From a bacterium (GTDB taxonomy: Bacteria; UBA8248): 64,000 bases of DNA. Every line of letters starts with the position of its first letter. Positions within the stretch are counted from its first letter, which is position 1. The stretch covers positions 2,528,001 through 2,592,000 of the forward strand of contig OZ253442.1 in the NCBI GenBank assembly GCA_965261085.1. The letters are read 5' to 3'. Below, piece after piece: positions 6,192 to 14,758 of the stretch. Both the position numbers and the translations under genes were made by a program. A model generated the notes under the pieces. The model did no database searches and was not told the origin of the DNA. It saw only the letters and a list, made by a program, of their open reading frames with translations.

Positions 6192-7868
6192 ATGATTCTA
6201 AAAAATAGAATATTCGCAATAATTTTCGTAGTTTTGGGGGTTCTCCCATCTTCTGGGTTTGCCCAATCAGCAGATATCGCCCTGGTGAACGGGAAAGTAT
6301 TAACAGTCGATGCGAATTTTTCCATTCAGCAGGCAGTGGCCATCCGGGGCGAACGCATTTTATCTGTGGGGGATAACTCCCAGATAACTAAACTGATAGG
6401 TTCAAATACGAAAGTGATTGATCTGCAAGGCAAAATGCTGATTCCGGGTCTGATAGATAATCATGTTCATTTTATCCGACATGCGTTGCGTTGGGAGCAT
6501 GAAGCAAGAATCGATGGGGTGATTTCACGTAAAAAAGCGCTTTCCATCATTTCCGCCAAGGCGAAATCATTGAAACGCGGGGAGTGGGTGCTCATCATTG
6601 GTGGATGGAGTCCCGACCAATTTCGCGATAAGCCGGGATTGTTTACGAAAGCGGAATTGGACGGGGCCGCCCCGAACAATCCGGTTTTTATTCAGCAATC
6701 ATATCGGCTTATGATCTTGAATAGCCAGGCTCTGAAGAAGGCGGGGATCAATGAGAACTCGCAAGAGCCGAGAGGCTGGCGGATAGTCAGAAGTGATTCT
6801 GGGGCTCCTACGGGCGTTATTTACGGTCGTCGGGCCATTTTCCGGTTCTGGCGACGTGAACTGCCGAAAGTTACGGAAAACAAAGTCATATCCGGCCTGA
6901 AGAAGCTGATGACGGACTTTAACCGTGCTGGTGTAACGGGTTTGCTCGAGTTAGGTGGTGGCGGGGTTAGGGACGAAACTTACAAGTTGATTCAGAGAAA
7001 ATTGTCCCCCAAAAATGGCCTTTCGGTGAGGATATTTTACACACCTCGCTTTCGGGTGCGTTCTCCGGAGCGAAATAAAAGAGTGATTGAGAGAATTCGA
7101 AAATCCCGCCCTGATAAATCCGCCAAGATGATGGGTGAAATCGCGCTTGGCGAGCATATGTATGCGCCTATCCACGATTCGCCGTTCAGGCCTGCACGGG
7201 CTTCGGATGAGGATTATCATGAATTTGCAAAAGTTTCCGAGGCGGCTGTAGATGGGGGATGGACGATTCACGAGCATGCTTTTCGCGATACTACGATTAC
7301 GCGGTATTTGGACATTTTCGAGAAAATAAATCAAAAAAAGAAAATAACGAATCTGCGCTGGTCGATTCATCACGCGGATTTCATCTCAATGAGAAACATC
7401 GAGCGCGTCAAAGCGCTCGGAATGACTTTGGCCCTGCACAGCAAAATGACGATTCTAGGTTCCGCGCTGAGGCGAAGATTGGGGAAACGCGCGCTCTCGC
7501 TGCCGCCGTTGCGGACGGTTCAGAATAGCGGGGTCATTTGGGGGCTTGGTACGGATGCCGGTGTCGTAGCTCCTTATCCGCCAATGCTTTCCCTGTGGTG
7601 GGCCGTTACTGGCAAGGATTTACGCGGGAAGAGGGCGCTTTCGGAGACCGAAACCGTTTCCAGAAAAAACGCGCTCATCGCCCATACGAGGTCGAACGCA
7701 TACCTGCTATTCAAGGAAAGTGAGCTGGGCTCTATCGAAAAGGGTAAATTGGCCGACCTCGTCGTGCTCGACCGCGATTACATGACGATCCCTGAAGATC
7801 ATATCAAGGACATCAAGCCTTTGCTCACGATGGTCGGGGGAAGGGTGGTGTTCCGCTCAAGAATATGA
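6192..7868 (+). CDS. Exported amidohydrolase 3 (YtcJ-like) family protein
   Basis: Signal peptide (…SSGFA|QS), PGLIDNHVH, GTD, GSIEKGKLADLVVLD. Confidence 0.88.
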   Translation: MILKNRIFAIIFVVLGVLPSSGFAQSADIALVNGKVLTVDANFSIQQAVAIRGERILSVGDNSQITKLIGSNTKVIDLQGKMLIPGLIDNHVHFIRHALRWEHEARIDGVISRKKALSIISAKAKSLKRGEWVLIIGGWSPDQFRDKPGLFTKAELDGAAPNNPVFIQQSYRLMILNSQALKKAGINENSQEPRGWRIVRSDSGAPTGVIYGRRAIFRFWRRELPKVTENKVISGLKKLMTDFNRAGVTGLLELGGGGVRDETYKLIQRKLSPKNGLSVRIFYTPRFRVRSPERNKRVIERIRKSRPDKSAKMMGEIALGEHMYAPIHDSPFRPARASDEDYHEFAKVSEAAVDGGWTIHEHAFRDTTITRYLDIFEKINQKKKITNLRWSIHHADFISMRNIERVKALGMTLALHSKMTILGSALRRRLGKRALSLPPLRTVQNSGVIWGLGTDAGVVAPYPPMLSLWWAVTGKDLRGKRALSETETVSRKNALIAHTRSNAYLLFKESELGSIEKGKLADLVVLDRDYMTIPEDHIKDIKPLLTMVGGRVVFRSRI

Positions 7869-11346: not shown

Positions 11347-12243
11347 CTAATTCACCCCTTTCGCTTTCGGCGCCAGCCCCAGTTCCCGTCTTTTCTGGAT
11401 GACGCCCGAGAGGCGGTACCAGGCCTCGCGGCCGGGGTCGATCTGAGAGCCGCGTTCAATGAGGCGCGACGCCAAGTCCAGCTCCTTGTTCAGGTAGACG
11501 AGCAATGAGGAGAGGTTCACCAGGACGCCCGTGTCTTCGGGCGATAATTCCTCCGCCGCCTTGAGCACCTTTTCCGCCTCTTCGTAGAGGTATTGGGAGA
11601 CCAGGTATTTGGCGTACTTGTTGGAGACGATCGGGTTCTCGGGGTCGAGTTCACGGGCTTTTCGGTATGCGGCGAGCGTTTCCTCCAAATCACCCGCCTC
11701 GTCCATCATCTTCGCCAGGGCGAGCCAGGCGTCCACGTTTCCGGGGTTGATCTCGAGATCGCGGCGGATGAGCCTGAGAGCGGCCTCGTCGTTTTTTTTC
11801 TCCAAAAGCCTCAGCGCGCGTTCATAAAGCGCGCTCGTGGTTTTCTGGAGAATCGAAAAACCCTCGTCCGATTCGATGATTCTCGACGTCGCCCCGAGCT
11901 TCAAATCCTGCACCTCGGCCCGGGTGCCGACGCTCAGTTCAGGAGGCTGCGTCTTTTGGATGGAGCGCGCTTTTTCTCTGAACTCACGGGCCACCTTGCG
12001 GAAGGGAATCCCGAGAATGGCGGTCTTGTCATACGCCTCTTTCGCCATGTCGTAGGTGGGAAGCGTCAGGACGCGGAAAAAATGCGGCTCTTCCGGTTTT
12101 TTCTTAAGGGGCGGTTTTGATTCGAGCGCTGGTTCCTTCTTCTCCTGGGGAAGGAAGAGGGCGCGGATGTTCGCGCAACCTGTAAGCAACAGAAACGCCG
12201 CCGGCGCGGCGATAATTATTCCGAGCCGCCTGCCTCCTCGCAT
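11347..12243 (-). CDS. Lipoprotein with degenerate parvulin/rotamase-like domain and C-terminal TPRs
   Basis: Lipobox LLTGC; F..VAREF and LKLG..SRIIES..GFSIL parvulin-like segments; TPR signatures (AWLALA..AYRKARELDPEN). Confidence 0.75.
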   Translation of the reverse strand: MRGGRRLGIIIAAPAAFLLLTGCANIRALFLPQEKKEPALESKPPLKKKPEEPHFFRVLTLPTYDMAKEAYDKTAILGIPFRKVAREFREKARSIQKTQPPELSVGTRAEVQDLKLGATSRIIESDEGFSILQKTTSALYERALRLLEKKNDEAALRLIRRDLEINPGNVDAWLALAKMMDEAGDLEETLAAYRKARELDPENPIVSNKYAKYLVSQYLYEEAEKVLKAAEELSPEDTGVLVNLSSLLVYLNKELDLASRLIERGSQIDPGREAWYRLSGVIQKRRELGLAPKAKGVN

Positions 12244-12250
12244 GGTGGGG

Positions 12251-12883
12251 CTAGGCGTCCGCGGGCTCGGCCACGACACGCTCGAAGGTTTTCATGAAAA
12301 CCTCCATCGGCTGCGCGCCGGTGATTCTGTATTTGCCGGAAAAATCGACCGTGGGTGTGGATTGCACTCCTGCGTTCAGCGCCTCGATGTGATCCGCCCA
12401 GACGCGCTTTTCCATATCCTGATCGGCCATGACCTCGCGCATGATCGAAGGCTCCGCCCCCAGTCGCTCGGCGGCGGCCACGAGCACGCCCGTGTCGTCG
12501 ATGTTCAGGCACTCGACCAGATGCGTTCGCTCCACGGCTTCCAGAAAATCGCCCTCCCGCTCCGGGAGTAGAGCGGCGAAGGCCTTGATGGCGATTGCGC
12601 CGGGGGTGGAATGGGGGTAGGGGAAATCGCGGCGCGCCATGAGTTCGGGATTGATCGCCTCGCCCCCGGGGTGGCCTTTCGCCATTGCCCAATGACCCAT
12701 GATGGCCTCCTTGCGGGACGGACGATTGTCCGGCTCGGGCGAGAGCAGAAAGGCGCGATACCGGATGGCGAGGAGCCCGCCCGCCATCTCCGTCAGTTTT
12801 CGCAACCGCCCGGTTGCGATCAGGCACCAGGCTCAGTGGACGCAATAGGTATACGTGGCTTCTATGACTGGTTCGTTCGGCAA
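12251..12883 (-). CDS. DsbA/FrnE-family oxidoreductase, probable selenoprotein (in-frame UGA at 12835-12833 in a UxxC motif)
   Basis: Frame upstream of ORF 12251..12805 reads LPNEPVIEATYTYCVH-TGA-AWCLIATGRL; C-terminal GVQSTPT cis-Pro loop and ITGAQP typical of FrnE; hairpin 3' of the UGA. Confidence 0.85.
12800..12819 (-). promoter_or_regulatory. Candidate bacterial SECIS element
   Basis: On the mRNA: UCGCAACC-GGGC-GGUUGCGA, a perfect 8-bp stem with a G-starting tetraloop; the loop begins 21 nt after the UGA. Confidence 0.7.
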
Positions 12884-12962
12884 TACATGGCCCTCATCGT
12901 TCGGCGGATTTGATGGCCGATCCTTTCATCTCCGAGGATTCAGCGCAAATACAGAATGCAAA

Positions 12963-13649
12963 TCAGCGCAGATATTCCCGCGTATGCGGAGCGAGCGAGA
13001 CGTTTCGGGAGAGACGGCCCTTCAGGGCCTCCAAATCGTCCGCCTTGTCGACGTCGCGCCATTCCGGGAGGAGGGAAGTCCCGATGCCGAGCGCGCCCGC
13101 TCTCTCTATCGTGCGGGAGAGCACCTCGTTCGTGCTCCAGGGGATGTCAACAAAAATATCAGGGACGAACCGGTTCATCCCGATGAGGTAATAGCCCCCG
13201 TCCGCCGCAGGGCCGAGCGTGATCTTGGGGTCATCCCCGCTATCCAGATTCCGAAACGCTTCGAGCAGAACGTCGTCTGGAAGATCCGGAAAATCCGTGC
13301 CGATGAGCACTGCGCTCCTCCCGGCCGTCAGGCATCGGCCCAGAGCCGCCGCCATGCGCGCCCCCAGGTCCGCTCCCGTTTGCGCACGATGGAGAAATGC
13401 GCCGGGCAGCCAGTCGGCGAGCGGAAATTCATCGAGCGACTCCCCGCGCTCCAGGGCCCACTCGCAGACGAGGCTGACGCTTGGCCTCACGAGGCTGAGC
13501 GCGCGCGCCGTCTCGGCGGCGTCTTGCAGAAAACAATTATATAGACGCGCGGCGCCCTCGCGCCCGAGACTTATGCCGAGGCGCGTCTTCACCCGGCCGG
13601 CGAGGGGCGGTTTGGCGAACAGGATGAGAGATTCGGCCGCCATCGTCAT
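12963..13649 (-). CDS. TIGR04282/DUF2064 family glycosyltransferase-like (CofC-like) protein
   Basis: FAKPP..GRVKTRL, Q.GADLGARM, LIGTD.P, LGPAADGGYYLIG, IPWST, DVD..DDL. Confidence 0.92.
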   Translation of the reverse strand: MTMAAESLILFAKPPLAGRVKTRLGISLGREGAARLYNCFLQDAAETARALSLVRPSVSLVCEWALERGESLDEFPLADWLPGAFLHRAQTGADLGARMAAALGRCLTAGRSAVLIGTDFPDLPDDVLLEAFRNLDSGDDPKITLGPAADGGYYLIGMNRFVPDIFVDIPWSTNEVLSRTIERAGALGIGTSLLPEWRDVDKADDLEALKGRLSRNVSLAPHTREYLR

Positions 13650-14282: not shown

Positions 14283-14758
14283 TCAGGGCCGCTTGATTAT
14301 CCACTCCTCCACCAGTTCACAGCCGCTCTCGCGGTAGAGCGCGGAAATGGGGCAGCGCCCGTGATGCTGGCGCTTGAGTTCCTCGACCCGCTCGTCGGGC
14401 TCATCGGTGGTGAGGTGAATTTTGCCTCCACGTAATCGAAGTTGGGGCTGATGCCGTTGTCCGGGTCCTTTGCGCCCCTGGGGTCGGCCGTGCCGCGAAC
14501 CTCCACCTCCTGGGCGATGACGTTGAAGTCGAGTCCCTCGGCCACCTTGTTCGTGATGACCGTGATGCAGGCGGAAAGCGCGCCGAGCGCGAGTTCGCGC
14601 GGCGTGGGGCCGGTGTCGGTTCCGCCGCCCTGGGCGGGTTCATCGGCGATGAAGGCGTGCTTCCGCGCTTTTATCTCCACCCGGCAGCCTTCTGTGCGCC
14701 TGGCCCTCACCCGGCGTTCCTGCTTGGCTATCACTTCCTTGTCCACGGCTTCCACCAT
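14283..14758 (-). pseudogene. OsmC/Ohr family protein with a 1-nt frameshift near 14420-14423
   Basis: DEP..GGGTDTGPTP.EL.LGAL.AC in one frame; the second conserved Cys (RCPIS) and a natural C-terminus lie in another frame. Confidence 0.8.

Follow-up and report, generated by a model that had tools for sequence, protein, structure and literature searches.

A stretch of 64,000 nucleotides (nt) of contig OZ253442.1 (assembly GCA_965261085.1, GTDB lineage UBA8248), hereinafter the window, contains on its minus strand, at positions 12251..12883, a gene that very probably encodes a selenoprotein. The product, 210 residues long, is regarded as a cytoplasmic thiol-disulfide oxidoreductase of the FrnE/DsbM type with selenocysteine (Sec, U) in place of the nucleophilic cysteine, in the active site U17-A-W-C20. 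The full coding sequence comprises 210 codons and the TAG stop, and the encoded protein is DsbA/FrnE-like with a thioredoxin fold.

In the mechanical list of open reading frames (ORFs) this gene appears only as a 184-residue ORF at 12251..12805 (minus strand). Reading upstream of it in the same frame gives TTG(12883)-PNEPVIEATYTYCVH-TGA(12835-12833)-AWCLIATGRL, and with TGA taken as U the N-terminus is M/L-PNEPVIEATYTY-C-V-H-U-A-W-C-LIATGRLRKL. The 210-residue product carries the active-site motif C14-V-H-U17-A-W-C20, in which codon 14 (TGC, 12842..12844) is an extra Cys three residues before Sec, codon 17 (12833..12835) is the in-frame TGA read as Sec, and codon 20 (TGC, 12824..12826) is the resolving Cys of UxxC. 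The TTG start codon (12881..12883) is the first start following an in-frame stop, and beyond it the frame contains that stop and no further start codon. The likely ribosome-binding site is GAGG at 12892..12895, 9–12 nt before the TTG. The ORF, TTG start, TGA and adjacent hairpin had been reported in an earlier note on this DNA, and all their coordinates and letters proved to be right on re-reading.

The comparative set consisted of the window and 18 related loci (n = 19) with protein identities of 75–95%. A scan of genome contigs gave 19 loci, 18 of which came from metagenome-assembled genomes (MAGs) labelled Nitrospinota, Nitrospinaceae or "bacterium". The remaining one, L019, belongs to a Bacillota MAG (33% identity), stands outside the 19-sequence clade set and is a Cys form with DVLCAWCY at the aligned site. 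TGA was found at codon 17 in 19/19 sequences, TTG at the start and TGC at codon 14 are equally constant (19/19 each), and the flanks of the UGA, YTYC[V/I]H-U-AWCLIAT, are conserved in the clade. Codon 20 encodes Cys in 18 of the 19 sequences, as TGC in 15 and as TGT in three, and is CGC (Arg) in L001; in L003, Val stands in place of Gly25. Close homologs without Cys or Sec at this position or without the upstream segment, named in the earlier note as a sign against a selenoprotein, did not turn up, since the TGA, the upstream segment and a hairpin resembling a selenocysteine insertion sequence (SECIS) are kept in 18/18 relatives.

The same data bear on the idea that TGA stands here for TGC or TGT through a fault of sequencing or assembly. 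The window is, it is true, not free of errors or real lesions, as is shown by the deletion of one nucleotide in an A-run of an OsmC-like gene, but an identical TGA in 18/18 independently assembled relatives effectively refutes this explanation and reduces its probability almost to nil.

Translation on both sides of the TGA is indicated by the pattern of substitutions. The minor-allele counts at the first, second and third codon positions, summed over the 19 sequences, are 21/11/51 in codons 2–26, all located ahead of the start used by gene callers, and 192/132/567 in codons 27–200, while Y11, Y13 and H16 are each encoded by two synonymous codons with the residue invariant. This third-position bias, together with synonymous variation upstream of the TGA, shows that the segment is translated in frame and that reading does not end at the TGA. 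TGA cannot have been reassigned generally, since it serves as an ordinary stop in 17 of the 38 window genes matching an NCBIfam family.

It might be supposed that the TGA at codon 17 is also a real stop, with a 16-codon upstream peptide followed by a DsbA-like product initiated at TTG 12805 and devoid of the active site. Such an arrangement would be either a decaying pseudogene or a regulatory leader, the hairpin then being an attenuator or a translational regulator. Among the stop codons of the window TGA is, indeed, the most frequent, and no Sec machinery is seen there. However, codons 2–16 and 18–26 show the same third-position bias as the remaining gene, and residues 18–26 (AWCLIATGR), lying before the supposed start, show conservation at the protein level and line up with the CxxC helix in 42 homologs. 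Nor would a nonsense mutation stay unchanged in 19 genomes of 75–95% identity with the surrounding active-site residues invariant. All 21 database homologs are annotated from a downstream start, yet the starts chosen by gene callers vary in position across orthologs; and the invariance of the TTG at codon 27 (19/19) follows from its location within the 3′ arm of the hairpin. In our opinion, a real stop is highly improbable.

The protein databases contain this gene in a shortened form, as the earlier note had anticipated for standard gene callers. A word-based search of 5.8 billion proteins yielded 21 homologs with identities of 66–95%, and all of them (21/21) are only 118–199 residues long, with the highest query coverage of 88%. 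The twelve that were inspected start at or after residue 25, at several different positions, and this scatter is to be expected if gene callers choose variously among the starts that follow a stop codon. With NCBIfam, neither the 210-residue protein nor any of the nine homologs scanned attains a model cut-off, in keeping with the truncated calls, and therefore the gene is probably unannotated. The database homologs found (21/21) are mis-annotated as proteins without an active site, and a dedicated model would correct the gene across a lineage of mostly uncultured, Nitrospinota-labelled bacteria.

Many distant homologs (25–46% identity), annotated as proteins of 145–210 residues, also start just past the active-site position. 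Examples are P0024, P0027, P0029, P0031, P0036, P0041, P0043 and P0053, of which P0029 begins with "VWC". Many matches of about 170–200 residues in the 50%-identity library are devoid of the motif and are probably truncated Sec forms of other lineages. The distribution of annotated starts suggests that Sec forms of the subfamily extend far beyond those annotated.

The position of Sec in the protein was established by comparison with the DSBA family. The 210-residue reading matches Pfam DSBA (PF01323) with 42.8 bits over profile positions 8–188 of 191 (gathering score 25.6), and the shortened ORF 12251..12805 gives 28.9 bits over positions 104–188. The profile covers the N-terminus only if the UGA is read through. 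An exhaustive HMMER search against 1.84 billion cluster representatives produced 581 matches with E ≤1e-3, 35 with E ≤1e-10 and 6 with E ≤1e-30, and the full-length matches have the N-terminal motif h-h-h-[H/S]-D-x-x-C-[P/A]-W-C. An alignment of 49 sequences was composed of seven Sec forms and 42 Cys forms, the latter picked among the 148 matches listed for full length and the presence of an N-terminal CxxC.

The columns of U17 and C20 are the only invariant ones in this alignment. U17 falls on the nucleophilic (first) Cys of CxxC in 42/42 Cys-form homologs and in L019, in agreement with the position proposed for it in the earlier note, and P177 occupies the position of the cis-Pro loop at which Pro is nearly invariant. 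The extra Cys at position −3, which the same note had singled out as a replacement of the family Asp, is also borne out, because this position is Asp in 42/42 Cys forms and Cys in 7/7 aligned Sec forms and 19/19 sequences of the clade. Within these data the Asp-to-Cys change appears as a clade-specific one. Position 16 is His in the clade and aliphatic in most Cys forms.

The AlphaFold2 model calculated from the alignment has a mean pLDDT (predicted local distance difference test) of 96.2 and a pTM (predicted template modelling score) of 0.92. It consists of strand beta-1 (residues 7–13), the C14–U17 loop, helix alpha-1 (residues 18–34) and further helices within residues 55–170, in keeping with a thioredoxin fold that carries an inserted helical domain, and U17 is placed at the N-terminus of alpha-1 in the predicted fold. 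Since beta-1 starts as early as residue 7, there is no signal peptide and the protein is considered cytoplasmic. The C-terminus reads ...ERVVAEPADA and contains no Cys pair, the CxxxxC tail being absent. Foldseek comparison with the PDB placed 2in3 first (template modelling score, TM, 0.83), followed by FrnE 5cnw (TM 0.74), YjbH 6ghb, SCO1869 3gl5 and DsbM 5hfg; the next matches were Kappa-class GSTs and HCCA isomerases. A sequence search of the PDB found FrnE of Deinococcus radiodurans with a weak but significant E-value of 1.3e-4.

The SECIS-like hairpin (8-bp stem, GGGC loop) is located at 12800..12819 of the minus strand. It is formed by UCGCAACC (12819-12812), GGGC (12811-12808) and GGUUGCGA (12807-12800), its stem begins 13 nt and its loop 21 nt after the UGA, and its 3′ arm holds the TTG (12803-12805) that gene callers use as a start. 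The hairpin is present in the minimum free energy (MFE) fold of the 71-nt context and has an energy of −12.9 kcal/mol when taken alone. Bacterial SECIS elements were described as stem-loops that immediately follow the UGA on its 3′ side and have a small, G-containing apical loop (PMC1088965). The hairpin fits this description, being a stem-loop 3′ of the UGA with a small G-containing loop.

Both strands of the window were scanned for TGA triplets followed by a mismatch-free stem of at least 8 bp and a loop of 3–14 nt with G within its first two bases, the loop starting 16–37 nt after the TGA, the spacing range assumed for bacterial SECIS elements. Only one of the 2066 TGA triplets qualifies, namely that at 12835(−); with shorter stems, 20 qualify at 7 bp and 83 at 6 bp. 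A looser scan gave 73 TGA triplets with a stem of at least 7 bp, including 41 with open frames on both sides, and the flanks were judged coding-like only at 12835(−). N- or C-terminal extension of 54 ORFs through TGA revealed no convincing case, as long read-throughs run into the next gene. No second selenoprotein gene was found in the window.

The sequence of the hairpin is kept in 19/19 sequences, and it is part of the 60-nt MFE structure in 17 of them. The sole polymorphism within the stem is GCA/GCG at Ala23 (6 vs 13 sequences), which converts an A-U pair into a G-U pair. At the margins, a change of CGA to CGC in L018 removes the terminal pair, and the loop is GUGC instead of GGGC in L003. 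Five of the seven hairpin codons are nucleotide-invariant, in comparison with 22 of the 124 other degenerate, conserved codons, and the mean fraction of synonymous minor codons is 0.053 in the hairpin vs 0.170 in codons 29–200. Among 138 seven-codon windows the hairpin ranks fourth in synonymous conservation, and the three ahead of it cover the translation start. Such conservation points to selection acting on the RNA itself.

The following mechanism may be proposed. The ribosome would pause at the UGA, and SelB carrying Sec-tRNA(Sec) would bind the hairpin 13 nt downstream, just outside the mRNA channel of the ribosome, whereupon Sec would be inserted. The mature enzyme would alternate between a selenol/thiol state and a U17–C20 selenylsulfide and would reduce or isomerise cytoplasmic disulfides. 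Cys14 would most likely be a third redox partner, by which the selenylsulfide is resolved or regenerated, a role likened to that of the extra C-terminal CxxxxC pair which regenerates the active site in Deinococcus FrnE. The natural C-x-x-U-x-x-C site offers a simple system for studying the effect of a second resolving thiol on selenylsulfide chemistry.

A number of observations weigh against the reading of this gene as a selenoprotein, and some of them concern the RNA. No compensatory double substitution occurs in the stem in the 19 sequences, so the support for the hairpin is conservation and not covariation. Its folding energy does not differ significantly from that of shuffled sequences (z-scores of −1.25 over 71 nt and −1.63 over 43 nt) and is not counted as evidence. 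Rfam at gathering thresholds gave 0 matches in the whole window; a permissive scan around the site returned only three miRNA/snoRNA matches, far under gathering scores (E ≥1.3), and no curated SECIS family. Moreover, an alternative hairpin, in which GCCUGGUGC is paired with GC-ACCGGGC (within 12793-12835, minus strand), begins 1 nt past the UGA, cannot coexist with the SECIS-like one and, in isolated RNA, is slightly the more stable of the two (−14.5 vs −12.9 kcal/mol). It represents the 60-nt MFE structure in 2/19 sequences. When the UGA occupies the A site, about a dozen of the following bases are hidden by the ribosome, and only the distal, SECIS-like hairpin could form at that moment; the alternative structure could modulate access to it. 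The variants of the locus mostly preserve the alternative hairpin too, as U-G wobbles.

Other observations of this kind concern the protein and the organism. In L001, the closest relative (95% identity), Arg replaces Cys20. The window contains at least one frameshift, because the OsmC-like gene misses one base in an A-run (near 14417-14425) in comparison with 6/6 orthologs examined. Cys14 is a putative redox partner. Finally, neither selA, selB, selD nor tRNA-Sec was found within the 64-kb window (0 tRNAs; 53 ORFs scanned with NCBIfam), and the 19 loci of the contig scan contain no selA, selB, selC or selD either. Sec decoding in this bacterium is therefore supported indirectly, by published data on MAGs with similar labels. 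Three MAGs assigned to GTDB UBA8248, with the labels Nitrospinota, Nitrospinaceae or Nitrospinae, are listed in BSepDB with 48–54 selenoprotein genes, among the ten richest bacteria (PMC13326102), and SelA and SelB are reported to co-occur in most bins of sponge symbionts, in a set including a Nitrospinae bin (PMC5649159).

In addition to the loss of Cys20, Pro replaces Leu30 in the selenoprotein of L001 (10001-10630), and the OsmC-like gene of this locus (about 7116-7600) has an in-frame stop at codon 28. These changes may be either sequence errors of the assembly or signs of relaxed selection. A 93-nt "tRNA-Ala (cgc)" proposed by ARAGORN in L018 (1468-1560, plus strand) was matched by no Rfam tRNA model and is probably a false positive.

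Another alternative is read-through of the UGA without Sec, when a near-cognate tRNA would insert Cys or Trp, or recoding would proceed independently of SelB and the hairpin would only slow the ribosome. Selenium is deduced here from the sequence, the window holds no Sec machinery and no curated SECIS model matches, all of which such read-through would accommodate. It would not account for the use of TGC or TGT in 0/19 sequences, although either codon would give Cys at no cost, or for a hairpin with the spacing and the small G-containing loop of bacterial SECIS elements. The site is, besides, the redox-active Cys of a family with known Sec forms (PMC1088965), and similarly labelled MAGs are described as being among the most selenoprotein-rich bacteria known (PMC13326102). 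On the whole, we consider read-through without Sec very unlikely and prefer Sec insertion at codon 17.

The gene lies between two others of the same strand. A gene of a TIGR04282-family arsenosugar biosynthesis glycosyltransferase (12963..13649, minus strand; 174.5 bits vs the cut-off of 134) is situated 79 nt upstream. Directly downstream is the gene of a TPR-repeat protein with a lipoprotein-type N-terminus (LLTGC) at 11347..12243 (minus strand), for which the start ATG 12243 was inferred; it starts a few bases past the selenoprotein stop, and its TPR-type NCBIfam matches are under cut-off. The order of both neighbours is kept in 18/18 related loci, but synteny among close relatives extends over the whole 20 kb, and gene order therefore says little about function. 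The TIGR04282 family formerly bore a name that linked it to a radical-SAM/selenodomain protein. The partners of the arsenosugar system are radical-SAM (ArsS-type) and second transferase genes, and no NCBIfam match to either was found among the 53 window ORFs.

This neighbourhood gives the sole hint, through the TIGR04282 gene, at a different function of the active site. The clade-specific triad Cys14-x-x-Sec17-x-x-Cys20 might form a three-chalcogen (S-Se-S) site for binding or reducing As(III) or a similar soft metalloid, or for processing an As/Se intermediate, in concert with the TIGR04282 enzyme. The invariant His before Sec and the loss of the family Asp make up the context of this suggestion, which seems to us unlikely in comparison with the thiol-disulfide function of the selenoprotein.

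The OsmC-like gene at 14297-14758 (minus strand) was considered as another selenoprotein and rejected, since it is a Cys form and is frameshifted. It matches NF041052, "OsmC-related (seleno)protein", over residues 16–96 only, and the C-terminus of its orthologs reads ...VEAKIHLTTDE...GRCPIS.... Its frameshift is either an assembly error or a mark of a real pseudogene.

The region upstream of the selenoprotein gene is variable. The 60 nt before the gene contain indels among relatives and show no conservation as protein, while a GA(T/C)GAGG block is kept in most of the 19 upstream regions compared. An upstream ATG was rejected as the true start because it is in frame in only 2/19 sequences, and TTG 12883 is the sole start in frame in all 19. 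In the intergenic region 12884-12943 (minus strand), at about 12920-12930, there is a conserved motif ATGAAAGGAT, which opens an 11-codon upstream ORF (MKG..ER) in 10/19 sequences. The TGA stop of this ORF overlaps the GAGG ahead of the selenoprotein TTG. The ATG of ATGAAAGGAT is in frame with the main gene in 2/19 sequences, and the other sequences differ in frame or length. To judge from this layout, the short ORF may encode a leader peptide or provide translational coupling.

DsbA-like proteins with UxxC are not new as such. The COG2761/PF01323 UxxC family entered the literature in 2005, when Zhang, Fomenko and Gladyshev recognized it as a new family of selenoproteins in the Sargasso Sea metagenome, with nine DsbA-like (COG2761) sequences having predicted SECIS elements (PMC1088965). 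DsbA-like selenoproteins were found in 2006 in the genomes of Anaeromyxobacter, Desulfovibrio and Desulfotomaculum (PMC1794560), and a review of 2026 contains the entry "DsbA-like protein form 1, PF01323, UxxC" (PMC13188914). Like members of this family, the window protein has the Pfam domain, a UxxC motif whose Sec stands at the position of the first Cys, and a SECIS-like stem-loop immediately following the UGA. The clade is characterized by Cys, and not Asp, at −3 and by His at −1. A full-text search for the string "CxxUxxC", in that spelling and with supplements and BSepDB entries outside its scope, found it in no paper.

The only NCBIfam model matched, that of the Rcas_1661 family thioredoxin-like (seleno)lipoproteins (NF041057), also covers a family which includes Sec forms. 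Membership in it was rejected, because the match has 25.3 bits vs the cut-off of 190 and is confined to the C-terminal 74 residues, and the protein has no lipoprotein signal.

By its fold, the protein resembles FrnE (5cnw), DsbM of Pseudomonas aeruginosa (5hfg), YjbH (6ghb) and 2in3 of Nitrosomonas europaea (TM 0.74–0.83, probability 1.00), and, like members of the FrnE/DsbM group, it has no signal peptide and carries a CxxC-type motif at the start of alpha-1. It differs from this group in having only 19–20% identity, Sec for Cys and Cys for the conserved Asp at −3. FrnE is described as a cadmium- and stress-induced cytoplasmic disulfide reductase/isomerase, and the C-terminal CxxxxC tail, reported for many FrnE homologs but not for all, regenerates the active site of the Deinococcus enzyme (PMC8945050); the window protein, unlike the latter, is devoid of this tail but has acquired Cys14 next to its active site.

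Summarizing this comparison, it may be concluded that both the recoding mechanism and the family are already known and that no new kind of biology is involved. The finding is ordinary in kind but of use for annotation.

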